A stretch of DNA of 61,211 bases, from IMG/VR virus record IMGVR_UViG_3300045988_081724; one strand, 5' to 3'. Positions 1 to 61,211 of the stretch are shown here, one piece after another. Source of the stretch: a virus. Both the position numbers and the translations under genes were made by a program. The notes beneath the pieces are model-generated. The model was not told where the DNA came from. It made no database searches and worked only from the letters and a program-made list of their open reading frames with translations. How positions within the stretch are numbered: position 1 is the first letter of the stretch; every line of letters begins with the position of its first letter.

Positions 1-61
1 ACCTGCGCGGTCTTTCAGCCACGTGATCATAGTCACATAGCGGAAGCCCCATGCCTCCATG
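1..61. repeat. Terminal direct duplication (copy 1), identical to 61151-61211; most likely circular-assembly overlap
   Basis: Exact 61/61 nt identity between the window start and end. Confidence 0.9.
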
Positions 62-261
62 ACCTTGAGACCATCGGGGAGGAAATTGTTCGTCACCCAG
101 AGATACAGGTGGCAGTCATTCGCCGCAATGCTTGGGACGTTTAGCGCCATGATGTCTTTTGTACTCATGAGCGGGTAGTGGCGATCCGCTCCCCGCTTGA
201 TCTTGCCGCCCCCCCGTTCCATCCACGGGGGATCGCAATAAATTGTTCTATACTTTACCAT
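1..261 (-). CDS. DNA methyltransferase, MT-A70 family, N-terminal part (gene wraps the circular junction; the C-terminal part is 60884-61150)
   Basis: Manual minus-strand translation 261->1 gives MVKYRTIYCDPPWMERGGGKIKRGADRHYPLMS... with the DPPW catalytic motif. RBS GAGGTGG sits 7 nt upstream of the ATG at 259-261. It is in frame with the ORF 60884..61210 through the duplicated 61 bp. Confidence 0.75.
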   Translation of the reverse strand, partial: MVKYRTIYCDPPWMERGGGKIKRGADRHYPLMSTKDIMALNVPSIAANDCHLYLWVTNNFLPDGLKVMEAWGFRYVTMITWLKDRAG

Positions 262-271
262 TTCTGCCACC

Positions 272-1348
272 TCATATCGAAGTAGGCAGCGGATATTTCC
301 GGCTGTTCTTTTCAAAAGCCTGGAGGCGTTTAAGAGCCTTACAAGTTGCCCCCGTTTGATTTTTATACATTTTCTGATTCAACTGACAAAACTCCCTAAA
401 TGTCATTTTCTTAACAAAATTCACTTGATTACACCACCTAGCGATTGTTGTATACAGCCCTTCCCACTTGCTTTGCTTCCACGGTGCTTCTTTTGGGGAT
501 TGGTATCTCATAATATACGGTATTGCTCCATATCGAAATAAAAGTTTAACTCTTAAAAAAACGCCTTCGATGTCTCTTTCGTCTGTACTAGTAAATCCGC
601 ACAATACGTAAAATCGCAAACTGGAAGTATTAGTAAACTCACGAATAAGTTGTAGCTTTCTTTCTATTAAGCGATAATCGCCTATATTGTCAAATGCAAA
701 AGTATAATCCCCGTCATATCTACATGAAAATAATTGCTTGCACTTCTCTTTGTCTAATATTCGTTCATCCATTCCTTGCTTAAACTGGAATGGCTTTTTA
801 GTTTCCTTTAGTAGTTCAAGGTATTCTTTCCATTTTGGATGACTTAGAAAGTTATCGTCTAAGAGACAGATCTTCTTTCTCTGCATATTCAAGAACTCTT
901 TTAGAGGACTAGCAGAAAATGCCCTATTGTATTTTTGGTTTACACAAAAAGGACATTTTCTAAAGCATCCCCTAGTTAGATACCCAATGCTATAATCGGT
1001 ATAAAACTTGACACCTTTCTTGTCGCTTTTCCACTCATCGTATAGATGATAGTCCGGCATATAATGTTCAATGGCTTCTGGAAGCATCGGTGCTTTGTCA
1101 AAAAAGTAACCTGTGCCACCTTTTATAATTTTCGTGTTTGTAAATAAACCTCGAATTGGATCAGGTGTATCCGTAAACACCTTAGCCACATAAACTATGT
1201 CAAAGGTGGATAAATTTGAGCAATCGAGTACCAGTTTCACATCGTTACCTATGTCCTTGTGAAAAGCCGATATTTTCATGCAACATAAATTTGGAAATCT
1301 ATGATTTTTTCTACCGACAAGATCGGCGTCAATTATACCAATCTTCAT
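272..1348 (-). CDS. Radical SAM domain protein (orphan; function unknown)
   Basis: 358-aa ORF with a CX3CX2C cluster (GCFRKCPFC) in the middle of the protein. Its stop overlaps the RBS of the methyltransferase. Confidence 0.6.
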   Translation of the reverse strand: MKIGIIDADLVGRKNHRFPNLCCMKISAFHKDIGNDVKLVLDCSNLSTFDIVYVAKVFTDTPDPIRGLFTNTKIIKGGTGYFFDKAPMLPEAIEHYMPDYHLYDEWKSDKKGVKFYTDYSIGYLTRGCFRKCPFCVNQKYNRAFSASPLKEFLNMQRKKICLLDDNFLSHPKWKEYLELLKETKKPFQFKQGMDERILDKEKCKQLFSCRYDGDYTFAFDNIGDYRLIERKLQLIREFTNTSSLRFYVLCGFTSTDERDIEGVFLRVKLLFRYGAIPYIMRYQSPKEAPWKQSKWEGLYTTIARWCNQVNFVKKMTFREFCQLNQKMYKNQTGATCKALKRLQAFEKNSRKYPLPTSI

Positions 1349-1815
1349 TTTCCAGTACTCCCTACTCCGCCAGTACGTTCACCAGTCGCTGTATCGTCAT
1401 CTGTGACCTTGAACGGAATAAAGATGCCTTGGCAAATTTTATCCCCGGTGTTAATCTGTACAGGTTCTTGCCCGAAGTTATACAGCGCAGCAATGATATT
1501 GCCATCGTTATTTTCATTTCCGTAATAATCACTATCAATAATTCCTACACCGTTTGGAATTGTAAGATGCTTCTTAATTCCAAAAGACGAGCGATCGCAA
1601 ATCATTAGAAACTCACCTCGTGGAAAGCGAGCTTTTACCCACGTCTTAATCTTGATCGTCTGTCCCGGCGCAATTACAACTGGATACGGGCAGAAAAAAT
1701 CATACCCAGCAGAATATTTCGTGCTGCGTTCGGGCAGTCGTACAACAAATGGGCAACCTTTTACAACCTTGAAAAATCTGCCTTCGCCAACATTTTTTAC
1801 ATTATTCATTTTCAT
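1345..1815 (-). CDS. dut: dUTP diphosphatase (dUTPase)
   Basis: Motifs SAGYDFF, GIIDSDYYG and GERTGGVGSTG. Confidence 0.85.
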   Translation of the reverse strand: MKMNNVKNVGEGRFFKVVKGCPFVVRLPERSTKYSAGYDFFCPYPVVIAPGQTIKIKTWVKARFPRGEFLMICDRSSFGIKKHLTIPNGVGIIDSDYYGNENNDGNIIAALYNFGQEPVQINTGDKICQGIFIPFKVTDDDTATGERTGGVGSTGK

Positions 1816-12930: not shown

Positions 12931-12965
12931 TAGTTTCAAAGGAATATGCTTACTTGACATAACCC

Positions 12966-13345: not shown

Positions 13346-13356
13346 TACATAAATAG

Positions 13357-13392: not shown

Positions 13393-13398
13393 GGCTAT

Positions 13399-13857
13399 TC
13401 ATTTGTCAATTTGTATTAACTCCTCAGGTGGCTTACCTTTATTTCCGGCAATCAGTAGCGAAAGCATGAGATTTGCTGCATAGTTAAACCCAGCCTTAAA
13501 TCCGCACAATTCGTACTCTGCGGCAGCATCGATCATGAGTGAATATAACTGATCCGATTCTTCCGGTATTGCTCGAAAAAGCTCATTCTTAAATTCTTTC
13601 GTTAAACTAATGACATCAGGGCTATATCTTTCTTTGGGCGTGCTATTGTTTACATAATCACAAAAATAATCATTCGCCGTTCGGACACCTTCCATTCTTC
13701 CTTCTCTCCTTTTAAAAATCAATAATAGCTCTAAAAAACTTTCCTCCTTTCTTACTCTCAAAACAGTTAGTGTGCTATGTTTTTCTTGCATTATACTCTT
13801 ACTGGTTAACATTTGCAAGAAACAATTTTTTAAGATGTGTATACTGTCATTTCTCAA
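13399..13857 (-). CDS. Hypothetical protein (start possibly internal, MEGVRTANDYF at about 13695)
   Basis: ORF. Confidence 0.4.
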   Translation of the reverse strand: MRNDSIHILKNCFLQMLTSKSIMQEKHSTLTVLRVRKEESFLELLLIFKRREGRMEGVRTANDYFCDYVNNSTPKERYSPDVISLTKEFKNELFRAIPEESDQLYSLMIDAAAEYELCGFKAGFNYAANLMLSLLIAGNKGKPPEELIQIDK

Positions 13858-41092: not shown

Positions 41093-41671
41093 CTATTCTT
41101 TCAGCATGTTTAAAAATCTTTCTTGGTTTTCCATACTGTTGAATATTCCGCTTGTCTCAAGTGTTACTGTTTTAGTTCCAGGCTTCTTGATACCTCTAGC
41201 GGTTACGCATGAGTGTTCTGCCTGTATTCTTACCGCTACGTCATTTCCTACTACCTTTGTCATGACTTCAAGAATGTCTTTCCCGAGTCGCTCCTGTAGT
41301 TGTAGGCGCTTTGCGCACATTTCCGCAATGCGTGCTACTTTTGATAATCCAATAACCTTGCCATTCGGCATGTAACCTACATCGACTTTCATGTTGTACA
41401 TTAGAGCAAGGTGGTGTTCGCAATATGAGAATACAGGGATTTCTTTTATTATAACGATACCTTTTGAGGTGGTAGGAAAGCTCTTACCAAACATTTTGGC
41501 AATATCATCGTTACTGTATTTTTCCCCTTCCCATACTTCATTTAGCATCTTTATTACTCGCTTAGGAGTTTCTTCAAGCCCCGGGTGTTTTTGTGGGTCA
41601 ATTTTCAATGCTAGTAGTAACGCAAAAATGGCGGCTTCTGCCGCTTTGTTATCTGTTTCCATGTTATACAC
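41093..41671 (-). CDS. folE: GTP cyclohydrolase I
   Basis: Motifs SYCEHHL and ...RLQLQERL... Confidence 0.85.
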   Translation of the reverse strand: MYNMETDNKAAEAAIFALLLALKIDPQKHPGLEETPKRVIKMLNEVWEGEKYSNDDIAKMFGKSFPTTSKGIVIIKEIPVFSYCEHHLALMYNMKVDVGYMPNGKVIGLSKVARIAEMCAKRLQLQERLGKDILEVMTKVVGNDVAVRIQAEHSCVTARGIKKPGTKTVTLETSGIFNSMENQERFLNMLKE

Positions 41672-42293
41672 CTCTTTCCATGGGATTCCATATAAATTTG
41701 TGAAGCTGGAGCTGAATACGCCAGTTTTGTAAATTGTGCTTCTTCATATACGCTACAATGTCTCTCGGCTCGATTTTACCGAACACCGGGCTTATATATA
41801 CCTGCGCTTTTGGGTCATACGTGCTATACACGTTATGGGCTTGATCGAGATCGTCCTGACTTCCTACTACGAATTTCAGTACATCCTGTTTCCTCAGTGC
41901 CCAAAAATTTTCCTCTAACATATGCTTGCTCATGCCGGAGCACCCACACTTGTAATCAATCGTAAACCATGCATTTTTATGTCGCATGTATGGGATAATT
42001 AAAATGCTACCGTTTGTCTCAATGTTAACATCATGCTCCGTAAGCCTATCCAGTAGCCCATGAACATCTTGAAATAACGGTTCTCCGCCTGTTAATGTAA
42101 CATTCTTGTAAGATACCTTTTTCACAATATCTTCGATTTCCATTTCTTCCCCTTCATTGAAGGTATATATAGAATCGCAGTACGTGCATCGAAGGTTACA
42201 TCCAGTTAGACGAATAAAGGACGTAAGCTCTCCAGCTCTACGCCCTTCTCCATCAATGCTATCAAAAATTTCGTTAACTTTAAGTTTCTTCAT
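41664..42293 (-). CDS. queE: 7-carboxy-7-deazaguanine synthase (radical SAM)
   Basis: CNLRCTYCD cluster near the N-terminus; size 209 aa. Confidence 0.8.
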   Translation of the reverse strand: MKKLKVNEIFDSIDGEGRRAGELTSFIRLTGCNLRCTYCDSIYTFNEGEEMEIEDIVKKVSYKNVTLTGGEPLFQDVHGLLDRLTEHDVNIETNGSILIIPYMRHKNAWFTIDYKCGCSGMSKHMLEENFWALRKQDVLKFVVGSQDDLDQAHNVYSTYDPKAQVYISPVFGKIEPRDIVAYMKKHNLQNWRIQLQLHKFIWNPMERGV

Positions 42294-42615
42294 AGATAGC
42301 CACGTTCCCTTCGCTTTCCTGTACCTGTACCTTTACGCAGTACGGAACGTTGTCATGAATCCATTTGGCAATGTTTTCCGCAGTTGGGTTCATGTTTGGC
42401 AGAACCTCATTTACATACTGATGATCTAAGTTCTCCTTTACTGCTTCACTAATGTGCTTGAAGTCTACGACCATGCCATTTTCATTGAGCGTTTCTGCTT
42501 TGCAGGTTACGTAGATAATCCAGTTATGCCCATGAAGATTACTGCACTTGCTTTTATATGGAAGTGTGAGCTTGTGTGCGCCAGCCACTTCCAGTCTTTT
42601 TGTCACTGTGTACAT
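42280..42615 (-). CDS. queD: 6-carboxy-5,6,7,8-tetrahydropterin synthase
   Basis: CSNLHGHNW motif; 111 aa. Confidence 0.8.
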   Translation of the reverse strand: MYTVTKRLEVAGAHKLTLPYKSKCSNLHGHNWIIYVTCKAETLNENGMVVDFKHISEAVKENLDHQYVNEVLPNMNPTAENIAKWIHDNVPYCVKVQVQESEGNVAIYEET

Positions 42616-42616
42616 T

Positions 42617-43324
42617 TCAGTCCTCCAATGCAGGGTCTTTTACACCATTTTTACGAAAAGCATTTGCTCTATCTATGCACGTTCCGCACGTCCCGCACGG
42701 CTTTTCTTTTCCTTCGTAGCAGCTCCAGGTTAGTTTATAAGGTGCATTCAGCTTTAATCCGACAGCCACCACACCGGCTTTATTCAACTTCGCAAGGGGG
42801 AATTTTAGATGAACTTTGCCATAAGTGCCAATTTTTATAGCTCTTCCCAACGCTTGCAAGAAAGGTTCGCTACAATCTGCATAAGCGTCTCCTGCTGCAT
42901 CATCTGCGTGTGCGCCGATATAAATATCAACCTCATCCTCCTCGAATAGACTTGCCGCGAGCGATGCAGCTGTCGAGAGCATAAGACCATTGCGGAACGG
43001 TACATAAGTTGAAACTTTGCCTTCTCCATTCTTGGCAATCTGCTCGGCATAGCTCTCGTGTATAATTTCTTCCGTGGAGCCCTTAAGAAGGGAGCAATTC
43101 GAATACTGGAAAATAGCAGAAAGATCAAACTCATAGTGCCGTACATGGTAGTACTCCGCAACCTTGCGTGCCGCAAGGATTTCCTTTTCGTGCTTCTGCC
43201 CATAAAAAATAGAAGCAGTCACTACATTTTCAGCACCTAATTCTTTAACTGCAATAGATACGCAAGTTGTGGAATCTACGCCACCGCTAGATAAAACAAT
43301 GGCTTTCTTATTTATTAAGTTCAT
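42617..43324 (-). CDS. queC: 7-cyano-7-deazaguanine synthase (start MNLINKK at 43324; the ORF extends to 43432)
   Basis: PP-loop SSGGVDS; C-terminal zinc site CGTCGTC. Confidence 0.85.
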
Positions 43325-43790
43325 GAATATATTCTTCTTTCCGATTTTTAACGAGCCCCAAATTATCCCCAGCGTTTGCAAAAGGCTTAATGCTGATGCC
43401 ACCCCTAGGATTGAACAAGCCATAGACCTCAATATATTTAGGGTCGAGCAATTTTTTTAAGTCTTTCATAATCATATTTACGCAATCTTCATGAAAGTCT
43501 CCGTTATTTCTGAAACTAAAAAGATACAGTTTTAGTGACTTGCTTTCGACAAGATAATTGCGCGGAATATAATTGATTATGATTGTTGCAAAATCCGGCT
43601 GTCCTGTTTTTGGGCAGAGACTTGTAAACTCTGGGCAATGTAAGTGAACCACATAATCATTGTCGGGATGTTTATTTTTAAATTTTTCTAATAAATTTGG
43701 ATCATACTCTTGCCTATATATGGTTTTTTTGCTTCCTAAAGAGTTAACGCCTTCCAACTCATTTAAGGTTCTCATAGATAATTCCTCCAC
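43308..43790 (-). CDS. queF: NADPH-dependent 7-cyano-7-deazaguanine reductase
   Basis: [15 protein letters not shown] and ESKSLKLY motifs. Confidence 0.8.
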
Positions 43791-44590
43791 TTTTCTTCAT
43801 ATTCCCTTTGCATCGCCATTCCTCTCTTATAAGCTTCAAGTTCAACTAGATCTCTATTCTTGGCGATTCTTATCCAGTCGCTATCAATTTTTCGCCCATC
43901 CATCACTGCATAGCGAACAGGCGAACTCCACGAACTACTATCAACAAAATCAAAAGGAACTTTATCTAACACATCACGGCGTGTCATGCCTAGACAATGC
44001 ATTTTGCAGCCATATTGTTTGGCTCTCTTCAAAAACATCAAATATTGGTCGTCTTTAATATCCTCATTTTTGAATCCTGATACGGCTATAATCTTTCCTT
44101 GGAAATCACGACACATTTTATTGAACTCCGCAATGCCGCGACCTTTGTGCCAAACTGGAATGATTTTATTTGAAACGTTCATTAGCTTTCTTCGCAATTC
44201 CAACACGCGCGGATAGCCAACAATAGCATCAATATCTATTTCAAAAAATCCTAAAATGTTCGGTTTGTCGAAAGTTTGAATAAATTTCGCATATTTGTCT
44301 ACGTATGTCTCCCATTCTACCCGCTTCCCTTTCTGGAAACTGTGCGCACCACTGTCAACTAGCATAAGTTCACTATTATCTCGGATACAAGTCGCACGTT
44401 TTAAAAAACCTGAATTTTTCAAATAGTAATAAGATACTAGATTATATTTAAGACGAAATGGCAAGTTTTTAACGTCTTTCAGCCATGAGTTTTCTGGACG
44501 TATCCCATGCTCTAACGAAGATAAAAATATTTTCATTAGAGCACCTTCTTGAAAAATGCTTTGCCCGCAATATGATGACACTTGGGACAC
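43772..44590 (-). CDS. dpdA: tRNA-guanine-transglycosylase-like protein (DpdA-like 7-deazaguanine DNA transglycosylase, inferred)
   Basis: [12 protein letters not shown] resembles the TGT DSGGFQ motif; context downstream of folE-queEDCF. Confidence 0.55.
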
Positions 44591-45042
44591 TCTAGCCTAT
44601 CCTTGCTTGGTTCTTCATAGGATTCTTCATCTAATTCGTGTACATCATCCCATTTAATGCTATCTCCTACCTCAAAGCCAAAATCACCGAGGTCTATATT
44701 CTCTATTCCTTCAATTTCTAAATTGAGTTTTTCAAAATCCCATTCTGCTAGTTCGTTTGTTTTATTGTCCGCCAGTCTAAAAGCCTTGATTTGTTCATCT
44801 GTTAAATCGTTAGCAATGATACATGGTACAGTTTCCATGCCTAGTTGAATTGCTGCTTTCAGTCTCGTATGTCCGCATACAATCACATCATTTGAATCAA
44901 TAACGATCGGCACTTTGAACCCAAACTCTCGAATTGAGTTTGCTACAGCTTCCACGGCGTTGTCGTTCTTTCGCGGATTATTTTCATACGCTTTAAGTTC
45001 GCCGACCTTCTTCTCTACAATTTCCATAATTCGTCCCTCCAA
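44536..45042 (-). CDS. ParB-like nuclease domain protein (possible DpdB-like partner)
   Basis: VIVCGHTRLKAA ParB/Srx motif; RBS GGAGGGA. Confidence 0.65.
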   Translation of the reverse strand: MEGRIMEIVEKKVGELKAYENNPRKNDNAVEAVANSIREFGFKVPIVIDSNDVIVCGHTRLKAAIQLGMETVPCIIANDLTDEQIKAFRLADNKTNELAEWDFEKLNLEIEGIENIDLGDFGFEVGDSIKWDDVHELDEESYEEPSKDRLECPKCHHIAGKAFFKKVL

Positions 45043-45080: not shown

Positions 45081-45244
45081 GACCTGCCCTGTTTTCCGAT
45101 ATCAAAGAAAATCATTGGTTTAGCAGCAAAAAACATAAGATAAAAGTATTAGGCACAACATATCGACTTATGCTTTGTTACAAGGCAGGTGTTAAGTTGT
45201 AATGCGGTTTCACATGGATGCTAATGTATGCTAGACCGCGCTAG

Positions 45245-45314
45245 GGTTAGGAATGGATTTGAACCATTATTTGGCGATTTCAGGTCGCCCGTTTTACCAT
45301 TAAACTACCTAACC
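45245..45314 (-). tRNA. tRNA (70 nt, no encoded CCA); anticodon loop CCUGAAA, apparent anticodon UGA with non-canonical C33 and a short variable arm; identity uncertain
   Basis: Manual cloverleaf: acceptor GGTTAGG/CCTAACC, D-arm GTTT-AATGGTA-AAAC, anticodon stem GGCGA/TCGCC, T-arm AATGG-TTCAAAT-CCATT. Confidence 0.5.
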
Positions 45315-45426
45315 ATGCAGTGCCTCTAATGTACACTCATCATGAATACATAAGAGGCAAACATTGAGGGGGTGTAAACGGTGGATCAGTCCCTCTCCAG
45401 TGGAGAAACCTTACACTCATTTACAT

Positions 45427-45490
45427 TGGTGAGCAGCACTAGATTTGAACTAGCAAAGTCTTTTGACCGCAAATTTACGGTTAGCTACTC
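45427..45490 (-). pseudogene. Truncated tRNA-like element: duplicate of the 3' part of the adjacent tRNA-Tyr (T-arm, acceptor, CCA) with no anticodon arm
   Basis: Shares GTCAAAAGACTT-CTAGTTCAAATCTAGTGCTGC-CACCA with 45512-45594; 64 nt. Confidence 0.4.
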
Positions 45491-45511
45491 TATACTCCCT
45501 AGTCGCATACA

Positions 45512-45594
45512 TGGTGGGCAGCACTAGATTTGAACTAGTGAAGTCTTTTGACTCAGACTTACGGTCTGTCCTTTAGCCGCTTGGATAGCTGCCC
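45512..45594 (-). tRNA. tRNA-Tyr(GUA)-like, class II (long variable arm), anticodon loop CCGUAAG with C33
   Basis: Acceptor GGGCAGC/GCTGCCC plus ACCA; D-loop AAGCGGCTAAA; T-arm CACTAG?TTCAAAT. Confidence 0.55.
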
Positions 45595-45629
45595 ATGTAT
45601 TGTAAACCATTTTCGCGATACTACGAAAA

Positions 45630-45705
45630 TGGTGGGGACAGCAGGACTTGAACCCACATCGAAGCGGTTATGAGCCGCTTGCTTTACCATTTAAGCTATA
45701 TCCCC
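45630..45705 (-). tRNA. tRNA-Met(CAU) (elongator type; could be Ile2)
   Basis: 76 nt including CCA; anticodon stem AGCGG/CCGCT; loop CUCAUAA. Confidence 0.7.
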
Positions 45706-45717
45706 AAAGACGCATTG

Positions 45718-45780
45718 TGGGTTTGGAAGGACTTGAACCCTCGACACAAAATCGCTCTAGCCAACTGAGCTACAAACCCA
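45718..45780 (-). ncRNA. 63-nt tRNA-like element with acceptor, D-arm and T-arm but no anticodon arm
   Basis: GGGTTTG-TA-GCTCAGTTGGCTAGAGC-GATTTTGTGTC-GAGGGTTCAAGTCCTTC-CAAACCC-A. Confidence 0.4.
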
Positions 45781-46543
45781 TATGCAAGGCAAGCTCGTGG
45801 CTCACCTTGCACTTATCATTCGGAGGAAACCGAATCTTCATGCCGAGCAAAACAGGTCGTCGCCCCTCTTTTGCTCATGTAAAGGGTAAAACGGGTAGTT
45901 AGCCGATTTCACCCACATATGCGCTCTACGCCCGCACAAGCGCAGAGCTAACTTTCCTTAGCCAAGAAACATTTAAGCGGCGCAGCCTAGTTTTTCCCAA
46001 TGACGGCTACACTTCATGAGTACGATAACCCGATAGTACGTCCGGCACATGTGAACCCATCAAAAGTTCGCTTTAGAATTAGTTGAGAGCGTGTTCACAC
46101 TGTTGCTTCCCCTAACGTTGGGAACTTTTAGCATCCACGACTGCTCCAACACTCCGCAGCAGAGTATTTTCCTTTTTACGTTAGACCCGAAGGAAGAAAC
46201 GCCGTTTTTCTGTGCATGAGCTTAACGATAACTCTCCACTCCGGTAAGTGGAACCCCCTGTTTAGAGCCTTAGAAACAGCACTAGTACCGTCCCATGCAT
46301 GCAGGGACACGCTTTTTCGTAGGTGTAGCGCGCACCGGACACTTTTAAGGTGCTCCGAACCATCCTTCCATTTTCGTAAGGAAACTTTAGCACGCCACTC
46401 TATCGCTGTGGATTGCGCTCTGTCCTTTATACTGATGACATGCTGTCAGCCGCACGCTACATTTTTGCCATGGCATGTTGTGCGGAGCTGGTGGGAGTCA
46501 TTTATACTCGCCCCCCGGAGAGTGCTGCCTTTTCGGCAACCAT

Positions 46544-46617
46544 TGGCAGGGAGTGATGGAATCGAACCATCGATGCAGGAGTCAAATTCCCGTGCCTTAC
46601 CTCTTGGCGAACCCCCT
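46544..46617 (-). tRNA. tRNA-Gln(UUG)
   Basis: 74 nt including CCA; anticodon stem CGGGA/TCCTG; loop AUUUGAC; T-arm GATGG-TTCGATT-CCATC. Confidence 0.7.
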
Positions 46618-46723
46618 ATAATTCCATGTAGTTATTGCTACATGGAGTGATACCGCAACGATATTACGCGCTCCCATGCGGTTAGGATACGCCCCTATAT
46701 TTTAAGCCACTTGGGTAGGCTAT

Positions 46724-46815
46724 TGGCGGATACAGTAGGATTTGCACCTACGAGCGGCTTACAATCCGCTTCTTGCTTAGCAGGCAAGCACCTTCGACTA
46801 CTCGGTCATGTATCC
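46724..46815 (-). tRNA. tRNA-Ser(GCU)
   Basis: 92 nt; anticodon stem CTTGC/GCAAG; loop CUGCUAA; long variable arm; CCA encoded. Confidence 0.7.
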
Positions 46816-46816
46816 A

Positions 46817-46905
46817 TGGCGGAAGCGGTAGGATTCGAACCTACGCCCAGTTTCCCAGCTCTCTGTTTTCAAGACAGTTCCCTTTGACCTCTTGGGTACG
46901 CTTCC
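46817..46905 (-). tRNA. tRNA-Ser(UGA)
   Basis: 89 nt; loop CUUGAAA; long variable arm GAGCTGGGAAACTGGGC; T-arm GTAGG-TTCGAAT-CCTAC; CCA encoded. Confidence 0.7.
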
Positions 46906-50036: not shown

Positions 50037-50153
50037 AGCTTCAAGCAGCCAATCCCCCTGTTGGGAAGTGCCGTTCCACTTCCCATTAACCCTTCGAATG
50101 ATAATCAGATCATTCTCGCTATAATATGTCCCACTCCTTCCAATCCACCTCAT
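50037..50153 (-). CDS. Small ORF (38 aa, MRWIGRSGTYYSENDLIIIRRVNGKW...) with GGAGG RBS
   Basis: Manual translation; the ATG overlaps the upstream stop. Confidence 0.3.
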
Positions 50154-50678
50154 TTATTTTTCCTCCATCACTGCATTGTCTACTAAACCTTTAAGAGCTG
50201 CCAACTTTCTTGTATTCAAGAGATTTGCTACTTCGTCCATTGTTAACAGGTCGTATCCGACAAGTGTTTCGAGCCCTTTGATTACGCCATCCATTCTCAT
50301 TACCATAGCGGTAAGGTGCAGTTTAGTTTCGTAATAACTAACCTCATTCATATCATGTTTATGTTCATCAAGATAGATTTCAGCTTTTGTTACCGCGTTT
50401 ATATTCGCCATAATCTTTCTTGCTTTTTCTTTTGCCCCTTCCTTTTGCGTATCCTTAATTACTTCTTTAAAAGCGGCTTCACACTGCTTTTCAGCTTCTC
50501 CTTTCGTGATAATTTCGGTCTTTGTAAATGCCTCTACGTAGTTGCTTGCGACGAACGATTTCATCTTTGCGATAATCTCGCTTTCGTTTTGTGCCTTACT
50601 CATATACATGTCGTAATAAGCATTGTATACGGTTTCCAGTGCGTTTTCTTTTACTTCTTTTACTTCTTCTACTTTCAT
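50154..50678 (-). CDS. Hypothetical protein (174 aa) driven by a promoter-cassette copy
   Basis: ORF directly downstream of the conserved leader. Confidence 0.5.
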   Translation of the reverse strand: MKVEEVKEVKENALETVYNAYYDMYMSKAQNESEIIAKMKSFVASNYVEAFTKTEIITKGEAEKQCEAAFKEVIKDTQKEGAKEKARKIMANINAVTKAEIYLDEHKHDMNEVSYYETKLHLTAMVMRMDGVIKGLETLVGYDLLTMDEVANLLNTRKLAALKGLVDNAVMEEK

Positions 50679-50770
50679 CTTTGTTTCCTCCTGTTATTTA
50701 CTAACTATTTCCTTTGTTGTATATATATTACTACATTTCCCACGATTTGTAAAGTGATTTATTGTCTTAG
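50679..50770 (-). promoter_or_regulatory. Conserved promoter+leader cassette copy
   Basis: Near-identical to 12784-12870 through the -10 element; diverges upstream. Confidence 0.65.
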
Positions 50771-50797
50771 CTGGCATTTTCCCGATACAAGTTTGCA

Positions 50798-50832
50798 ACA
50801 AAAAAGCCCATCAAATTTTGATAGGCTTTTAT
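50798..50832. terminator. Terminator-like imperfect hairpin
   Basis: AGCCCATCAAA-TTTGATAGGCT with T-run on the minus strand. Confidence 0.45.
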
Positions 50833-50926
50833 CGTTCTATACATCTGTATGGAAATGGTTCACTTTAAAAACATAGCATCCCCTATGCCCTAAATGTGAA
50901 CTATTTCCTTACATTTGTATAGAACG
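50833..50926. repeat. Long imperfect inverted repeat (about 44-bp arms at roughly 80 percent identity around a 7-nt CATCCCC centre)
   Basis: Left arm cgttctatacatctgtatggaaatggttcac... against the reverse complement of the right arm cgttctatacaaatgtaaggaaatagttcac... Confidence 0.75.
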
Positions 50927-50951
50927 ATAATATCATTTTACGCATCCCCTT

Positions 50952-51425
50952 TCAACCTAAAACATCTGTCATTGCGTCTCTCTGCTCTTCTGCCAGTGCT
51001 TCTTGCCCTCTAATAAATTCGTCGCTATGCTCAATCTTGAATCCCATCTCACCTTCCACTCTTTCAATCTCATCATTGAAGAAAGCTCTCCAGTCATCCT
51101 CGTTTTTTACAAAATAGATATGGGGGCTTTTGCAATCCGTTTCATAAGAAATATCCTTGAACGACCATAATTTCCCGACGCAACGTGAGCATGGATCATG
51201 CTTAGTTTTGAGTTCAGCATATTTTTTTTGCTGAATATTGTGAAGATCAACCAGTCCTCTTTTGAATATTTCATCACAAATGTCTTTAAGGTCTGCCGGG
51301 TACGCATTTTGATAAAATGCCCACTCTGCCAGTTCACGAATGCTATATTTGCAATTGCGAATATAGCTAATATCTTCAACCTTGCAATTTAGCAAGCCAC
51401 AAATAATATCTTCATTTTGATTCAT
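50952..51425 (-). CDS. Hypothetical Cys-containing protein, paralog A
   Basis: Shares the C-terminal E.MGFKI.HSDEFI and N-terminal C..LL.C...D pattern with 51441..51878. Confidence 0.5.
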   Translation of the reverse strand: MNQNEDIICGLLNCKVEDISYIRNCKYSIRELAEWAFYQNAYPADLKDICDEIFKRGLVDLHNIQQKKYAELKTKHDPCSRCVGKLWSFKDISYETDCKSPHIYFVKNEDDWRAFFNDEIERVEGEMGFKIEHSDEFIRGQEALAEEQRDAMTDVLG

Positions 51426-51440
51426 AGCTATTTCCTCCCT

Positions 51441-51878
51441 TTATCTTCCGATGAACTCGTCGCTATGCTGAATCTTGAATCCCATATCATTCTCGACTTT
51501 TTCAATCTCCTTTTGAAAATAACGCCGCCATAATTTTTCATTCCCTACAAATCTGATGTATGGAACGAAACAATTAGCCTCATAACGAATGTCAGCGTAT
51601 GCACTCAAAGATCCAAATTCTTTTAGCGGTGACTCATTTTCATTGATGCCATTTAACCTAAGACGCTTTGATTCTTCCCACACTGCTTTTTCTAAAGCAT
51701 CCCTTCCTTTTGTAAAAATCTCTTCAATCAACCCATTTATATCAGGCATTGCTTCTTCATACGTGATATATCTATTAACGAGTTCGCGAAGATTATACTT
51801 GCAGTCTTTAATCATTTCGAGGTCATCAATTCCACAATCAAGCAAGTTGCATAAGCAGTCTTTTTCATTTCTGTACAT
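51441..51878 (-). CDS. Hypothetical Cys-containing protein, paralog B (start MYRNEKD with AGGAGAG RBS; the ORF extends to 51953)
   Basis: Paralog of 50952..51425. Confidence 0.5.
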   Translation of the reverse strand: MYRNEKDCLCNLLDCGIDDLEMIKDCKYNLRELVNRYITYEEAMPDINGLIEEIFTKGRDALEKAVWEESKRLRLNGINENESPLKEFGSLSAYADIRYEANCFVPYIRFVGNEKLWRRYFQKEIEKVENDMGFKIQHSDEFIGR

Positions 51879-51880
51879 TT

Positions 51881-52450
51881 TTACTCTCCTGTTGCCTTTA
51901 AAAAACCTTTCATTTTCGGAAGTGTTTCTACCACTCTGCAAAACTCCTTCCATTCCGGCAACGCATGATTTTTTCTCTGCTTGTACATGTTCAGTAGCTG
52001 CAAATAATTGGTATTTACCCGTGCTCGTTCCTCTAGCCCTACCGGAACACTATAGATCAATGCATTTTTATCTACATTCTCTTTCTTTTGCAGCGCGTCA
52101 TAAAATTCATTTACTCTATTCTCAAACGCCTCTATTACTTCTTTCGGCGTCCCTTCTGCAAATGTCCAGTTGCGTTTCGCCACGCAATGCATTAAGCCCT
52201 GGCTCATTACAATATCAAACCAGTGATAACGCTGCGCCTGTTGCCACCACTTTATACTTGCAGTGATTGTCATACCAACACGCGCTCCGACAAGAAAATT
52301 TGCCTCTCCGCTACTTACTCCACGGCTAACAAGTGTATTTGCAAGTTTTTTAGTGCTAACCTTAAACGGATCATATTCATCGCCATAACTTAATCCAATA
52401 GCCGCCAATGCGCTATTTAATCCTGATACTGTAATCTTTTCAATTTTCAT
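51881..52450 (-). CDS. Hypothetical protein (189 aa); weak resemblance to the ThyX signature (..TASIKWWQQAQRY..)
   Basis: ORF; S-x-QQ-x-QRY segment only. No RHR motif. Confidence 0.3.
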   Translation of the reverse strand: MKIEKITVSGLNSALAAIGLSYGDEYDPFKVSTKKLANTLVSRGVSSGEANFLVGARVGMTITASIKWWQQAQRYHWFDIVMSQGLMHCVAKRNWTFAEGTPKEVIEAFENRVNEFYDALQKKENVDKNALIYSVPVGLEERARVNTNYLQLLNMYKQRKNHALPEWKEFCRVVETLPKMKGFLKATGE

Positions 52451-52790
52451 AGCTTGCTCCGCTAACTAATCCAACTTCTACGAGCTTTTTAACTGCATCA
52501 ATCTGTGCCTTCGTCATTTTTAGGGACGTATCGTCAGGACAGATACCTTCATACCAAACCATAACTAACCCACGATACCCATGCTTTTTTAGCCGTTCCA
52601 TCTCAATGTCATGTGACGGGCTAGCAAGAAAAACCAACCCATTTTGCGTTACTATGCATTCGCAATAGCACACGAAGCACTTGGGATACTGCTTCGTCAT
52701 TTTAATAAACTCATCCGGTGTAAATCCAACACCTCGAAACTTTGTATATGGAGAATCAGGCGGATTCATAAAGTGTTCAAGCATCATCAT
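52440..52790 (-). CDS. Hypothetical protein (116 aa)
   Basis: ORF. Confidence 0.45.
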   Translation of the reverse strand: MMMLEHFMNPPDSPYTKFRGVGFTPDEFIKMTKQYPKCFVCYCECIVTQNGLVFLASPSHDIEMERLKKHGYRGLVMVWYEGICPDDTSLKMTKAQIDAVKKLVEVGLVSGASYEN

Positions 52791-53023
52791 TAACGCCCCC
52801 TCTTTTTTGATAATGTGTTCTCAGTGTTAACCGTTATAACAAGACCAAACTGGTTTCCAGTCCCAACCTCGCGCACAGCCATACGTAATACATTATCGTC
52901 CACATTATCATGTGTTCTGTTACCACACAAATAACTATCGTATAGATATTTGTCTGTTGCAATATCATATACGCATACATCATCCTCTTTACTGCAAACC
53001 TTCAATAAGTCTCCAACTGTCAT
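52790..53023 (-). CDS. Hypothetical protein (77 aa)
   Basis: ORF. Confidence 0.4.
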   Translation of the reverse strand: MTVGDLLKVCSKEDDVCVYDIATDKYLYDSYLCGNRTHDNVDDNVLRMAVREVGTGNQFGLVITVNTENTLSKKRGR

Positions 53024-53352
53024 TTGACTTCCCCTTTCACAACAATCACCAACACTGGTTCAATGGTATCATCAATATAAATGTCATTTATTGTTTCATC
53101 ATATCGGAAAAACTCAGGGCAATAATCAGGAAAAATGTCGCACACTTCCCTATTTTTTAATTCTTCCAATGTATACGAAAATTTAGGATGACCAAATTTG
53201 CCACGTCTGCCACGTATTTTTATTGTGTCAATATTTTCGTACATAGATTCAGTTGAATTAGTTGATTCAAAAATAGCAAAATGCACAAGACTTTTATTCA
53301 CGTTTTTTAAAACTTCGCTAACTGTCATTTTTATCTCTCCTTCATCACACAC
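53020..53352 (-). CDS. Hypothetical protein (110 aa)
   Basis: ORF. Confidence 0.45.
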   Translation of the reverse strand: MCDEGEIKMTVSEVLKNVNKSLVHFAIFESTNSTESMYENIDTIKIRGRRGKFGHPKFSYTLEELKNREVCDIFPDYCPEFFRYDETINDIYIDDTIEPVLVIVVKGEVK

Positions 53353-53695
53353 TTACGCCAGTGTGATACTTGAAATAGTCTTTTATGTATTTCTCACCGA
53401 ATTTATTAACCATCCATTTGAAGTATGCGGCGTTTATCTTCGACGGGTAAAATGGTTCCCAGTCTCGAGTTTCAGGCGGCTCGAAATCATAATATACATA
53501 CCTAGTTTCCGCATAGCATTTTTCTTGTTCATCATCGTCGGGCGGTATTTCTTCCCAAAACGTAACGTATAAATTTGGGTTACTGTCGATATAAATTTGT
53601 GTTTGCTCGCGGTCAAAAGAATCACATCCCATGACAACTTTTTCCAGCTCTTCTATGTCTTTCTTTGTAAGTTTTTCAATGTACATTATTAACAC
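53345..53695 (-). CDS. Hypothetical protein (116 aa)
   Basis: ORF. Confidence 0.45.
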   Translation of the reverse strand: MLIMYIEKLTKKDIEELEKVVMGCDSFDREQTQIYIDSNPNLYVTFWEEIPPDDDEQEKCYAETRYVYYDFEPPETRDWEPFYPSKINAAYFKWMVNKFGEKYIKDYFKYHTGVSV

Positions 53696-54078
53696 GCACC
53701 CTCTTTTTCTTGAGATAATCTTTTAAACATCTTGATTAGCTGTTCATCCCTTAACCCGTTATCAGCATTAGATATTTCGAGAAGGTCGTTGAAATTTTTT
53801 CGTTTCCTATCCTCTTGTAATCTAACCTCGTATCCCTTTCCAACCGTGCTTGAAAGTAAATCACCTTTTTCATGCCATTTGTTAAACCGAAGAACAGGAT
53901 ATGCCCATGGCTTATTCCGAAAGTCTCTTTCAGTTTTCCATGCAATGGACACCTCTAAAAGGTATTCAGGGCTAAGTCGAATGTACTTGTGTAGCCAAAC
54001 TGCCTGCCATAAGTTTACCTTGAACCCATTGCCGCACTTTTTATTCCATACTTCGATTTGTTTTCTCGTGATTTTCAT
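53689..54078 (-). CDS. Hypothetical protein (129 aa)
   Basis: ORF. Confidence 0.45.
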   Translation of the reverse strand: MKITRKQIEVWNKKCGNGFKVNLWQAVWLHKYIRLSPEYLLEVSIAWKTERDFRNKPWAYPVLRFNKWHEKGDLLSSTVGKGYEVRLQEDRKRKNFNDLLEISNADNGLRDEQLIKMFKRLSQEKEGAC

Positions 54079-54093
54079 TCTGCTTTCCTCCGT

Positions 54094-54489
54094 TTATCTT
54101 GCCCACACATCGTCTGCACTCGATCCAATAGCAGGGATAGCACATGCAGCAATATCTTCAATTAAGTTATATTTTTCACATTCGTCTGCATCCGGCAAGA
54201 ATGAATCAGGATACCCATTCTCGCTATCGTCCAGCCAAAACCAATAAGCGCAAGCGTTAAAATCATTATCACGGATTCGAAACAGTCCTCCTTTTCCATC
54301 GTATCCGCATTGCCAAAACAGATTATGAATTTCACCTTCAGTTTCAAACTGAATAGCTACTCCTTGTCCATCTTCGATAATCTCTGTTTTTAAAATCCTG
54401 TATCTTCTCATTCCTGTTCCTCCGTAAACCCGACTCTTTCCATTAGATACGGATCGCTTAAAATTCCTTGAATAATTTCCTCTTTCCAA
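54094..54489 (-). CDS. Hypothetical protein (start possibly MRRYRIL at 54411)
   Basis: ORF; its 5' end overlaps the next ORF. Confidence 0.4.
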   Translation of the reverse strand: MERGNYSRNFKRSVSNGKSRVYGGTGMRRYRILKTEIIEDGQGVAIQFETEGEIHNLFWQCGYDGKGGLFRIRDNDFNACAYWFWLDDSENGYPDSFLPDADECEKYNLIEDIAACAIPAIGSSADDVWAR

Positions 54490-58055: not shown

Positions 58056-58217
58056 CTACAATACAACAACCTTTTTAGAATTAGTCTCTTCCAGTGTCGG
58101 ATGAATATCATAGTCCCTTCCATGATACAAGCCCCCATCGTCTCTGTACTGTACACATATGTCACAATCTAAGCAGTCATTCTTTTCTGCCCACTCCAAG
58201 AGTTCTTTAAGTGTCAT
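58056..58217 (-). CDS. Small ORF (53 aa, MTLKELLEWAEKNDCLDCDICVQYRDDGG...), ATGA overlap with the upstream stop
   Basis: Manual translation. Confidence 0.3.
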   Translation of the reverse strand: MTLKELLEWAEKNDCLDCDICVQYRDDGGLYHGRDYDIHPTLEETNSKKVVVL

Positions 58218-59005
58218 TCACTTTCACATTCCTCAAGCTCCTTCAGCTTATTGGCATACCATGCGATCTTTCCGGCGGTTTCTGCTTTGTCTCCTTTGCG
58301 ACCATAGCGATATGCATACTTCAAAATGTTGCCCCAAAGGAAGCCCTCATACTGATCTTTGTGCATCAGATGATTGATAATGTCAATGGCTTCAGGAAGA
58401 CTCTTAACTTTATAATGTGATGGGTTGATAGCGTCTTCTGTCTTCTTGTTCAGTACATTACTCAGTGGATGAATATCAAGTTTAGGGTCTTCATCCTGTA
58501 CGTCATATACGCCATTTTCAGAAAAGTAGCTAAAAGTGTTCGGGTATTTAGAATCATCAGACCAGCGTACTGCCACTGGATATGGATTTCCTTTATCATC
58601 CAGAATGTTCTCTACAACTCCGAAACCAAAATTAAAAGAAAAAACATTATCCCCTACAAAAAACTTTTCATTGTCTGTAAACATTTTATGGTTAGAAAAA
58701 GCCTTATCTCCTACATGAAATTTTTCATCTTCTGTACTCATTTTTTTGTCATCCCATTCTTCTTTTTTTAAGGGCTTTAATATCAAACTCTGGTCAAACT
58801 CTGGGTCTGGAAGAGGTGTAACAGTATACCTTCCTTCCAAAGTAAAGACATCATCTGATCTATAACTTGGATTTACTAACTTTGTCCACTTTACATGAAT
58901 TGGATATACAGGGTCTTCACTTTCATCAATTCCAGTGATAATGCCCTCACCAAAATGAGGGGAAATGACCCTGTCACCTACTTTGAATTTGCTTTCCTCT
59001 GCCAT
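58214..59005 (-). CDS. DUF3310-like protein with three N-terminal KF.VGD.V.S..FG.G repeats (paralog of 3628..4074)
   Basis: C-terminal INPSHYKVKSLPEAIDI...LWGNILKYAYRYGRKGDKAETAGKIAWYANKL. Confidence 0.55.
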   Translation of the reverse strand: MAEESKFKVGDRVISPHFGEGIITGIDESEDPVYPIHVKWTKLVNPSYRSDDVFTLEGRYTVTPLPDPEFDQSLILKPLKKEEWDDKKMSTEDEKFHVGDKAFSNHKMFTDNEKFFVGDNVFSFNFGFGVVENILDDKGNPYPVAVRWSDDSKYPNTFSYFSENGVYDVQDEDPKLDIHPLSNVLNKKTEDAINPSHYKVKSLPEAIDIINHLMHKDQYEGFLWGNILKYAYRYGRKGDKAETAGKIAWYANKLKELEECESE

Positions 59006-59512: not shown

Positions 59513-60310
59513 TTAGAACAAACTCGTTTCTCGCTTCTCGAACTCAATCTCTTTTTTAAACCGCTCTTCCCATTGCTTAAGAGTGTTTTGGTTGTGACTC
59601 ATTTGTTTAAACTCATACACTTCACCACCTTGCGACTGAATGTTCTTTATCACTTCTTTGTTTAATCGCTTTAATTCTTTCCACAAATCGGGGAAATCGC
59701 GGTACAAGAGCTTTAAGTCTCTCACACCTTGCATTGGGCAAACCCAACATGAAAGCCGTGTGCGCTCTTTGTACAGCCCCCCCCAATCGAATCCATGTTT
59801 GTAGCAGTATTGGAGTGCCTGTGCCTCTGTTATTCCCCATTCAAACAAGGGATAAATGTCACCATGAACTCTTTTGGGCTCATCAGCGGCGATTCCGATA
59901 TACATCTTAGTATTTGCTTTCGTAAATCCATGCTCTTTCATAAATTTGGATACGGGTTCTCTTTTTAATGTGTACGTACACCACCTATTATTCATAGATG
60001 ACCACCCATAACCATGAGTTCCGGCTCGCTTTCCCTTCTTTCGAAGGATGTGAAGCAAGCCATATTCAAATCCGTTGCTCGGTTTTAGCACAGTCACCAT
60101 TTTCCCGTACTTCTCTTCGATATACGAATTTACCCGCTCGATATGCTCATACATCTGCGGGAACTCCATCCCGGTATCACAAAAGAGGATGTAATCAATT
60201 TTCATTCCCCTTTCTAACATCATGAGTAACATCGCCGTACTATCTTTACCACCGCTGAAAGAAACGATCGACTTCTTACTATTCTCGATATGTTCCCTGT
60301 AGTCGCTCAT
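59513..60310 (-). CDS. Phosphoadenosine-phosphosulfate-reductase-family PP-loop protein (start MSDYREH; the ORF extends to 60349)
   Basis: PP-loop SFSGGKDS; 265 aa. Confidence 0.7.
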   Translation of the reverse strand: MSDYREHIENSKKSIVSFSGGKDSTAMLLMMLERGMKIDYILFCDTGMEFPQMYEHIERVNSYIEEKYGKMVTVLKPSNGFEYGLLHILRKKGKRAGTHGYGWSSMNNRWCTYTLKREPVSKFMKEHGFTKANTKMYIGIAADEPKRVHGDIYPLFEWGITEAQALQYCYKHGFDWGGLYKERTRLSCWVCPMQGVRDLKLLYRDFPDLWKELKRLNKEVIKNIQSQGGEVYEFKQMSHNQNTLKQWEERFKKEIEFEKRETSLF

Positions 60311-60323
60311 TACATATCTCCCC

Positions 60324-60761
60324 TCAGTTGATTTCAAAAACCAAAGCATGAAGAATTTCCTGTTTTCTGCTCCATGGGTCAGTTTTTCCCTTAACCTCTT
60401 TCATTCCAACCATTCGGCATCCGGCTTTCTGTAGTTCCCATGCATTTTCGATCGCTCTCGTCCAGCCGGAGGAAAAGGTGAAGCGCTTCACTCCGTTTTC
60501 CTTGAGGCAGGCGATGCAGCTTTCGGTCTTGTCAATGTAGTTATGGAAATTCAGATCTTCGTTTCCATTCTTTCGGGACTCTTCGTATTCGCTGTAGATG
60601 AATGCGAACACCGAGCCTTCCTTGTGGTAGCGAGCTTTCCATGCCTTGTAGGCGTTTCTAGCTTTTGCCTTCCCTGCTTCGTCCATTCTTTCTTCTGCCT
60701 CATCAAACGCCTTGTCGAAGGTCTTGTATTCTTGGTAGGCTTTTTCAAATTTGTTTGTCAT
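60324..60761 (-). CDS. Hypothetical protein (145 aa) driven by a promoter-cassette copy
   Basis: ORF directly downstream of the conserved leader. Confidence 0.5.
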   Translation of the reverse strand: MTNKFEKAYQEYKTFDKAFDEAEERMDEAGKAKARNAYKAWKARYHKEGSVFAFIYSEYEESRKNGNEDLNFHNYIDKTESCIACLKENGVKRFTFSSGWTRAIENAWELQKAGCRMVGMKEVKGKTDPWSRKQEILHALVFEIN

Positions 60762-60850
60762 GGTGGTTTCCTCCCATTTACTAACTATTTCCTTTGTTGT
60801 ATATATATTACTACATTTTGCTTGATTTGTAAAGTGATTTGTTGTCTAAA
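60762..60850 (-). promoter_or_regulatory. Conserved promoter+leader cassette copy
   Basis: Near-identical core to 12784-12870. Confidence 0.65.
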
Positions 60851-60883
60851 ATCGCATGTTTTTGACTTTTCGTAGCAAAAAAA

Positions 60884-61211
60884 TTAGAGGAGAATATCAC
60901 TTTCTACTTCATTTCCCCATACGTCCCATCTTGAATGCGGCTCGCGAGCAAAGAGCTCGCAGTAGGGTCCATAGGATACGCTCTCAATCATGCGGCGCAT
61001 CTCCTCCGGCTTTCGACTGTGGATGGTGCGCGTGGCGGTGAATCCTGTGAGCCCCTGACAGCGCTTCCCATCTGCGCCGATTTTGTAGGGCGGGTGCCCC
61101 TTGATCCCAAAGAGGCAGCTCTCGGTGATGCCCCGGAAATACTGCCCGAGACCTGCGCGGTCTTTCAGCCACGTGATCATAGTCACATAGCGGAAGCCCC
61201 ATGCCTCCATG
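60884..61211 (-). CDS. DNA methyltransferase MT-A70 family, C-terminal part (continues from 261->1 across the junction; 61151-61211 duplicates 1-61)
   Basis: ...MEAWGFRYVTMITWLKDRAGLGQYFRGITESCLFGIKG...HSRKPEEMRRMIE...WDVWGNEV. Confidence 0.75.
   Translation of the reverse strand, partial: MEAWGFRYVTMITWLKDRAGLGQYFRGITESCLFGIKGHPPYKIGADGKRCQGLTGFTATRTIHSRKPEEMRRMIESVSYGPYCELFAREPHSRWDVWGNEVESDILL
61151..61211. repeat. Terminal direct duplication (copy 2), identical to 1-61
   Basis: Exact identity to positions 1-61. Confidence 0.9.

Follow-up and report, generated by a model that had tools for sequence, protein, structure and literature searches.

Introduction

PbeABCD was described as the restriction-like partner of DndCDEA phosphorothioation (PMC6459918), and it corresponds to the systems of Aravind and colleagues that comprise a CxC-ABC ATPase, DndE, an HKD helicase and a small protein (PMC10853773). 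The modification partner in the described Pbe systems is a phosphorothioation module or a C5 or N4 cytosine methylase, sometimes with MTaX1 (PMC6459918; PMC10853773), such methylases and the MTaX1 domain being what CxC-ABC systems otherwise pair with (PMC10853773). In the survey of Xiong et al., 320 of 553 PbeAC pairs had no dndCD nearby, and 165 of the 553 (∼30 per cent) had neither dndCD nor a methylase nearby (PMC6459918). Here we consider a stretch of viral DNA (IMG/VR record IMGVR_UViG_3300045988_081724; 61,211 nucleotides, hereafter the window) that encodes, at 272..1348 on the minus strand, a 358-residue radical S-adenosylmethionine (SAM) enzyme with bacterial relatives in Pbe-type operons. 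Its gene lies in a block of phage accessory genes that an initial annotation had proposed as a candidate second nucleic-acid modification module. The block is better described as a patchwork, and the orphan radical-SAM enzyme within it is a credible lead to new DNA-modification chemistry.

Genomic contexts of the radical-SAM family

Loci carrying relatives of the radical-SAM gene were gathered from viral records (28), metagenomic places (6) and species-representative genomes (80), and the neighbours at all of them were called as open reading frames and clustered. Three arrangements cover 45 of the 80 genome loci; a further genome locus consists of the radical-SAM gene and its partner u216 alone, and all six metagenomic places are of the Pbe type. 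The bacterial relatives in these defence operons are 44–58 per cent identical to the window enzyme. At 29 of the 80 loci, the radical-SAM gene heads a same-strand operon of overlapping genes and is followed by u216 (216–250 residues), PbeA (∼700), a small protein (54–62), PbeC (∼665) and a PbeD-like protein (∼150). The large proteins are recognized by PADLOC as the HKD nuclease-helicase PbeA (2e-217) and the CxC/DndD-like ABC ATPase PbeC (2e-83; DndD 6e-46), and the last one has a weak match to the Pfam model ‘DNA_S_mod_dnd_assoc_4’, which fits PbeD, the cognate DndE. The second arrangement (9 of 80) runs from the radical-SAM gene through a ParB-like gene, a 135-residue protein, an SNF2 helicase and another ParB-like gene to u216, and in the third (7 of 80) the radical-SAM gene precedes a large GmrSD_N/DUF262 protein, in most cases with u216 between them.

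The radical-SAM/u216 pair fills the place of the modification module in the Pbe operons. The fold of u216 is a tandem winged helix that resembles the FokI recognition domain, BrxA and SspB; searching its profile against PDB sequences returned nothing, and hhalign found no relation to the phage neighbour clusters c8, c11, c17 and c21 or to DUF7698, PbeD-like and ParB-like proteins. The 142 other genes that flank the defence-type operons include neither a DNA methylase family nor a PP-loop family that recurs; among them are resolvases, WYL proteins, AbiEii-like ATPases, helix-turn-helix proteins and integrases, as is typical of islands. No mention of the radical-SAM/u216 pair was found in PMC6459918 or PMC10853773, and neither the radical-SAM family nor its pairing with Pbe is described in the literature searched, outside which lies the first description of CxC-ABC systems (Krishnan et al. 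2020).

A protein of ∼1100 residues is encoded directly upstream of the radical-SAM/u216/Pbe operon in Dialister and relatives (L081, at 6720-9986; L075; L083; L098). This Negativicutes protein has sigma-70 region 4 domains beside helix-hairpin-helix domains like that of the RNA polymerase alpha C-terminal domain, and it also matches PglW weakly; it could have a regulatory role or be a further part of the system.

At phage and prophage loci the radical-SAM gene is found without u216, and its company is of another kind. DNA-modifying enzymes make up 32 of the 104 immediate neighbours at 57 phage-type loci (16 N6/N4 methylases, 13 C5 methylases, one MT-A70 and two Mom), the remainder including nine ParB_N domains, mostly in methylase fusions, five dUTPases and five PAPS_reduct proteins. 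The gene is flanked by two methylases in the Oscillospiraceae phage NatCom_21982 and adjoins a ParB-like gene in a Methanomassiliicoccales virus. What the family conserves in bacteria is the company of a winged-helix protein together with a Pbe, GmrSD-like or ParB/SNF2 module, and in phages that of DNA methyltransferases.

Scans of the window for homologues of u216, PbeA, PbeD, ParB-like (cluster c22) and DUF262 proteins found none. The Pbe hidden Markov models used were built from 35 PbeA, 29 PbeC and 21 PbeD sequences, and the PbeC model gave one weak local match (3.7e-06), on a 167-residue reading frame. In a neighbour-joining tree, the lineage of the window is sister to the defence-linked clade and does not fall inside the main phage clade.

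Sequence and fold of the radical-SAM enzyme

The protein matches phrog_9298 (2e-57), which is annotated as ‘radical SAM domain protein’, and carries the cluster motif C128-F-R-K-C132-P-F-C135 (C128-x3-C132-x2-C135). The three cysteines are invariant in 59 homologues and, with C161, are the only invariant cysteines of the family alignment. The match to PF04055 stays below the cut-off (14.0 bits against 29.5; E 0.058), the Pfam model failing to reach so divergent a family, yet the partial TIM-barrel fold of a radical-SAM core is present. Ahead of this barrel stands an N-terminal Rossmann domain (B12-binding-like or UPF0004), and this two-domain layout accounts for the mid-chain position of the cluster, which had been remarked on from the sequence at the outset.

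No family could be assigned by Pfam, NCBIfam or PADLOC scans, and a search of PDB sequences with the protein and with its 59-sequence profile gave nothing below E 0.7; Foldseek against viral structures recovered unnamed radical-SAM proteins only. That the enzyme is not QueE, NrdG or SplB, as first judged by eye, agrees with the lack of any match to those family profiles at cut-off, and it likewise has no housekeeping homologue. A TRAM domain was not matched, the C-terminus being helical, and among the 59 homologues there is no invariant cysteine before residue 128 that could belong to an auxiliary-cluster triad. The family is large, with 4730 homologues in a word-indexed search and 2017 clusters at 50 per cent identity in an exhaustive one, none of which is informatively named or carries a Pfam domain; these ∼2000 clusters occur across gut anaerobes and their phages.

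A scan of the longer members (470–734 residues) for fusions found only a weak helix-hairpin-helix domain, a fragment of a C5 methylase that is probably an artefact of gene calling, and a LAGLIDADG insertion. The LAGLIDADG domain lies in P0188, one of five members of 680–734 residues (with P0155, P0168, P0178 and P0192), some of which match the query in two or three separate stretches, a pattern that points to inteins or homing endonucleases inserted into the radical-SAM gene. In some viral contigs the gene is split, into 75 + 292 residues (L009, L010) or 59 + 304 residues (L027); these may be frameshifts or assembly errors, and are consistent with the gene being non-essential.

A proposed role in DNA marking

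There is reason to think that the enzyme acts on DNA. A marking role is suggested by its pairing with u216 and by modules that are like the partners of phosphorothioation or cytosine methylation. In bacteria, the winged-helix u216 protein would direct the radical-SAM enzyme to mark host DNA, the two forming a self-marking module, and the Pbe, DUF262 or ParB/SNF2 modules would then tell marked from unmarked DNA. The phage copy, which would stem from the defence-linked clade, would mark phage DNA on its own in the manner of an orphan methyltransferase, and the same mark on phage DNA would permit escape from such defence systems; the 7-deazaguanine pathway of the phage and its orphan MT-A70 methylase would act beside it. 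The reaction would probably be radical-based, a base or sugar being alkylated (methylated), perhaps with the help of cobalamin and at an unactivated carbon; a dehydration like that of AprD4 and activity on nucleotides are alternatives.

On balance, then, we consider it more likely than not that the window holds a patchwork of accessory genes in which the radical-SAM protein is an orphan DNA-modifying enzyme used as a counter-defence. A fuller proposal is offered more tentatively: that phrog_9298 and its winged-helix partner install an undescribed, radical-made DNA mark that serves as the self signal for Pbe, SspE/GmrSD-like DUF262 and ParB/SNF2 defences, that this explains part of the ‘solitary’ Pbe systems, those lacking both dnd genes and methylases, and that in gut phages such as this one the solo enzyme counterfeits the mark. 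The earlier suggestion that the phage carries a second DNA-modification or anti-defence system survives in part, in that the radical-SAM enzyme is probably linked to such a role, while a single joint system of this enzyme with the PP-loop protein does not.

Several points weigh against a DNA-marking role. The link of the family to DNA is guilt by association, although it comes from two kinds of context. The main weakness is that the phage has no u216, so that a solo enzyme may lack targeting or act elsewhere. The binding of cobalamin may be no more than putative, and in the defence operons the enzyme could serve to produce a signal or act as an effector, in place of being the modifier. Moreover, a gene for a protein like the reductase of 3′-phosphoadenosine-5′-phosphosulfate (PAPS) lies immediately upstream of the radical-SAM gene at five loci (L076, L079, L093, L099 and L100), and some cooperation between the two is possible.

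The idea of an effector can be taken further. The enzyme might act on a nucleotide or small molecule, as a dehydratase resembling AprD4 or viperin or as a consumer of SAM or of a signal, and might thereby generate an effector or signal in bacteria and a counter-measure in phages. Such a role would suit the translational coupling of the radical-SAM gene to dUTPase in the window lineage, the SAM synthetase found as one phage-type neighbour, and the precedent of viperins and Ophion OpnA (bioRxiv 2025.09.30.679545), which are effectors and not DNA modifiers. It is harder to reconcile with the constant bacterial pairing with a DNA-recognition protein like those of FokI, BrxA and SspB, with the slot that the enzyme occupies in Pbe systems, which is that of DNA-modification modules, and with the share of DNA-modifying enzymes among its phage neighbours; the adjacency to dUTPase is moreover specific to one lineage. 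We regard this alternative as unlikely, if the least so of those considered here. Two further comparisons were set aside, the first being with Ophion (OpnA) and the radical-SAM module of a Thermus phage, in which the partner genes differ, and the second with the radical-SAM enzymes of thymidine hypermodification, in view of the pathway to which they belong.

Were the DNA-marking proposal true, a mark made by a radical-SAM enzyme would join methylation, phosphorothioation and 7-deazaguanine, and would be distinct from the part played by QueE in deazaguanine synthesis. Some of the PbeAC pairs that have no modification partner nearby (∼30 per cent; PMC6459918) would be accounted for, and an unnamed family of ∼2000 clusters at 50 per cent identity would gain a role.

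One system or a patchwork

The initial annotation had placed the radical-SAM enzyme in one system with the PAPS-reductase-like PP-loop protein encoded at the other end of the record. That pairing does not hold across the family, since a gene of this PAPS-reductase-like subfamily was detected within 10 kb of the radical-SAM gene at only ∼12 of 114 loci, in three phage lineages; these neighbours were detected by BLAST clustering and single-sequence phmmer, by which divergent PP-loop genes could be missed. The five loci with the gene directly upstream belong to one Lachnospiraceae prophage lineage, the distance is 3–5 kb in the lineage of the window, and in NatCom_21982 the gene lies beyond the terminase. 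In phage records the PAPS-reductase-like family is represented 368 times, mostly in Vibrio, Stx and Salmonella phages without a radical-SAM gene, and the radical-SAM family 17 times.

Other genes of the block have histories of their own. dUTPase stands next to the radical-SAM gene only in relatives of at least 70 per cent identity (L004-L010 and L031). The MT-A70 gene has a guanine-plus-cytosine (GC) content of 54–57 per cent, against 37 per cent in the radical-SAM gene beside it and 42 per cent in the genome, and in L004, which is 98–99.8 per cent identical in the flanking DNA, the central part of MT-A70 differs and is not alignable; both observations suggest that this gene was recently replaced or acquired. 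In a sibling phage of 90–96 per cent identity (L031, IMGVR_UViG_3300023491_000277), a single deletion of ∼2.9 kb (at 10160-10241), corresponding to the window from 1188 through the junction to 59462, has removed the 3′ 85 per cent of the radical-SAM gene, MT-A70, DUF7698 and the PAPS-reductase-like gene, and has kept the first 53 radical-SAM codons. The block is therefore dispensable, although one deletion is no proof of functional coupling.

It might still be supposed that the radical-SAM enzyme and the PP-loop protein, possibly together with MT-A70, form one ATP- and SAM-dependent pathway for a single new DNA modification, for example a phosphorothioate-like one or an adenylation-primed modification of a base. 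The prophage lineage with direct adjacency, the proximity in the window lineage, the presence of both genes in the genome of NatCom_21982 and their joint loss in L031 would all be in keeping with this, as would the resemblance of the PP-loop protein to SspD, BrxP and DndC, given that the radical-SAM enzyme partners Pbe, SspE-like and DndB-like modules; a published claim that DndC uses SAM, as it is cited within PMC10853773, points the same way. Yet ∼100 of the 114 radical-SAM loci have no gene of the PAPS-reductase-like subfamily within 10 kb, no PP-loop gene recurs at the 46 defence-type loci, and the two families differ greatly in their numbers among phage records. The cases of adjacency belong to a small number of related prophage lineages, in which methylases, HNH and PAPS-reductase-like genes stay together upstream of the terminase, and in the window the two genes are separated by DUF7698 and the compositionally foreign MT-A70. 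We therefore hold a joint pathway to be improbable. The stretch is a patchwork of phage accessory genes that were acquired separately, and not one biosynthetic pathway; such stretches are common in phages, and the finding as originally framed is an ordinary one.

Still less probable is a role in RNA modification, for example of the phage tRNAs, in which the radical-SAM protein would resemble the MiaB/RimO-type enzymes to which it is similar in fold. The phage does encode five or six tRNAs, but the enzyme has neither a conserved N-terminal cysteine triad nor a TRAM domain, its neighbours are DNA methylases and restriction-like modules and not tRNA genes (a minority of the loci having been checked for tRNAs), and the defence operons form chromosomal islands.

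The other proteins of the block

The PAPS-reductase-like PP-loop ATP-pyrophosphatase (59513..60349, minus strand; 278 residues) matches PF01507 (4e-12) and phrog_424 (3e-51); an alternative start at Met14 (60310) gives the end point first assigned to the gene. Its SGGKDS loop (in SFSGGKDST) is intact and the conserved motifs FCDTG and NRWCT are present, whereas direct reading of the sequence shows that the C-terminal ECGLH motif of CysH is absent. Among PADLOC models, it matches SspD (1e-25; positions 2-240 of 277), BrxP (1e-13) and DndC (3e-9), and all its NCBIfam matches fall far below their cut-offs (26.6 bits against 290 for DndC). From these features the protein would be an adenylating enzyme of an SspD/DndC/BrxP-like branch, not of sulfate assimilation, and independent of the radical-SAM enzyme. 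No clear DndD/SspC-type ATPase and no SspB-like, PbeD/DndE-like or u216-like partner was found in the window, where a weak local PbeC match was the sole hit, so that phosphorothioation by the PP-loop protein alone is unsupported for want of the ATPase or an SspB-like partner.

That the gene is a genuine CysH, boosting host sulfate assimilation as an auxiliary metabolic gene, is the least plausible reading of all, for beside the Pfam PAPS_reduct match and the annotation of phrog_424 as a sulfur auxiliary metabolic gene, made without a functional test (PMC13369170; bioRxiv 2026.02.18.706556; PMC11318856), stand an intact ATP-pyrophosphatase loop, a missing catalytic cysteine motif, best profiles that are SspD, BrxP and DndC, and scores of 13–21 bits with the cysH and APS-reductase (adenosine-5′-phosphosulfate reductase) models of NCBIfam against cut-offs of 154–235 (TIGR00434, 21 against 165; PRK02090, 18 against 154). 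One paper remarks that such PAPS-reductase-like homologues could have another function (PMC11437467). A phage ‘PAPS reductase’ of the present type bears the features of an ATP-pyrophosphatase and not those of CysH, and the assignment to sulfur metabolism that is common in virome surveys is probably wrong for this protein.

The MT-A70 N6-adenine methyltransferase is divided by the ends of the record into an N-terminal part (1..261, minus strand, with its ATG at 261 and the DPPW motif; GC 0.54) and a C-terminal part (60884..61211, minus strand, of which 61151-61211 duplicate 1-61; GC 0.57). Reconstruction of the junction (261-1, then 61150-60884) yields one reading frame of 175 residues that covers the whole of PF05063 (profile positions 1-172 of 172; 5e-25, 88.9 bits against 23.9), contains ‘YCDPPW’, and matches phrog_359 (2e-59) and the PADLOC model MTase_II (2e-54). 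Judged by these matches, it would be an ordinary orphan adenine methylase. The DUF7698 protein (60324..60761, minus strand; 145 residues; PF24753 1e-14, phrog_21141 4e-15) belongs to a neighbour cluster (cluster 26) whose members also follow, downstream, the radical-SAM and methyltransferase genes of eight other phage-type loci. The dUTPase (1345..1815, minus strand; 156 residues) matches PF00692 (5e-17; 62.3 bits against 22) and phrog_135 (4e-39), its stop overlaps the start of the radical-SAM gene (ATGA), and its role is presumably the sanitation of the nucleotide pool.

Genome organization and neighbouring features

The first 61 bases of the record are an exact copy of the last 61 (1-61 = 61151-61211, the terminal overlap, to which no strand applies), which indicates a circular assembly of 61,150 bp once the overlap is removed. 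On the minus strand the order across the junction is dUTPase, radical-SAM, MT-A70, DUF7698 and the PAPS-reductase-like PP-loop gene. Profile searches and motifs placed all four enzymes of the initial annotation where it had put them, each on the minus strand; their identities and the run across the junction stand, but they are not strictly contiguous, as a fifth gene (DUF7698) between MT-A70 and the PP-loop gene had been missed.

The genes of the stretch abut or overlap one another, no terminator-like sites were found between them, and promoter-like sites in the stretch are no commoner than in shuffled sequence, from which it follows that the stretch is part of a long same-strand operon. This operon leads from replication genes towards packaging genes. 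A serine recombinase is encoded at 9732-11420 in this temperate phage, and the stretch sits in the long early/middle operon of the phage, in a genome that also has a 7-deazaguanine cluster. None of 50,697 phage records was matched when 25 kb of the window were used as a megablast query.

The separate preQ1 cluster reported at the outset is real, with FolE, QueE, QueD and QueC at 41093-43432 (minus strand), all confirmed by Pfam. Because a canonical QueE is part of this cluster, an assignment of the radical-SAM protein as the deazaguanine-pathway QueE was rejected. The cluster is followed by a 272-residue protein (43772-44590, minus strand) with no Pfam match, possibly a DpdA-type transglycosylase, and then by a ParB_N protein (44536-45042, minus strand). 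A cluster of tRNA genes (45244-46905, minus strand) lies upstream of this ParB-like/deazaguanine/terminase block; ARAGORN recognizes five tRNAs (Ser-TGA twice, Ser-GCT, Met-CAT and Gln-TTG), and Rfam adds a tRNA-like match at 45718-45779.

Two paralogues on the minus strand, at 58214-59005 and 3628-4074, carry DUF3310 at their end after repeated ‘KFxVGD’ motifs, the first directly downstream of the block, the second in the replication region; the domain is confirmed by Pfam for 58214-59005 only and was judged by eye from the sequence for 3628-4074. The genome is otherwise densely coded, but no convincing minus-strand reading frame was seen at 12400-13400 and 50150-54300.

Comparison with known systems

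Among the closest described systems is DndCDEA-PbeABCD, whose restriction-like half is shared in full, the radical-SAM relatives standing directly upstream of cassettes with PbeA, PbeB-like, PbeC and PbeD-like genes. The difference lies in the other half, where a radical-SAM enzyme and a winged-helix protein are the partner and DndA, DndC, DndE and a methylase are lacking. The window differs further, in that its radical-SAM gene is solo, PbeA and PbeD are absent, and there is at most a weak local match to PbeC. A second comparison is with SspABCD-SspE and the type IV GmrSD-like DUF262 enzymes; here the radical-SAM operons differ in having no SspA, SspC or SspD, and the likeness of u216 to SspB is at the level of fold only, with no match of sequence profiles.

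As an enzyme, the radical-SAM protein shares its Rossmann-then-radical-SAM layout with AprD4, MgmA/QCMT, TsrM, CysS, TokK and MiaB/RimO. Identity to these is 10–15 per cent, however, neither Pfam nor NCBIfam places the window protein in a family, and at 358 residues it is much shorter than most of them. MiaB and RimO have in addition the auxiliary-cluster cysteine triad and the TRAM domain that it lacks. To our knowledge, none of these enzymes acts on DNA.

The PP-loop protein of the window is like phrog_424, BrxP (BREX type 4), DndC and SspD in its PP-loop, its PAPS_reduct domain and a nearly full-length alignment with SspD. It stands alone, however, with no clear DndD/SspC-type ATPase, no SspB or DUF4007 domain and no cysteine desulfurase.

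Phage orphan methyltransferases and Mom, which counter restriction by self-modification, occupy the same niche as the phage copies of the radical-SAM gene, which lie in methylase clusters between replication and packaging genes, and have 30 methylases and two Mom among their 104 neighbours; in the sibling phage L031 the gene is dispensable. The protein, by contrast, is a radical-SAM enzyme and not an SN2 methyltransferase or a protein of the acetyltransferase fold, so that its product may be something other than a known methylated base. On the tests made, the defining components of the Dnd-Pbe, Ssp-SspE and orphan-methylase families are not all present, so that membership in none of them is claimed. 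What the comparison offers instead is analogy, by which the bacterial radical-SAM operon would resemble a Dnd-Pbe or Ssp-SspE arrangement in which another enzyme is the modifier, while the phage gene would resemble an orphan methylase.

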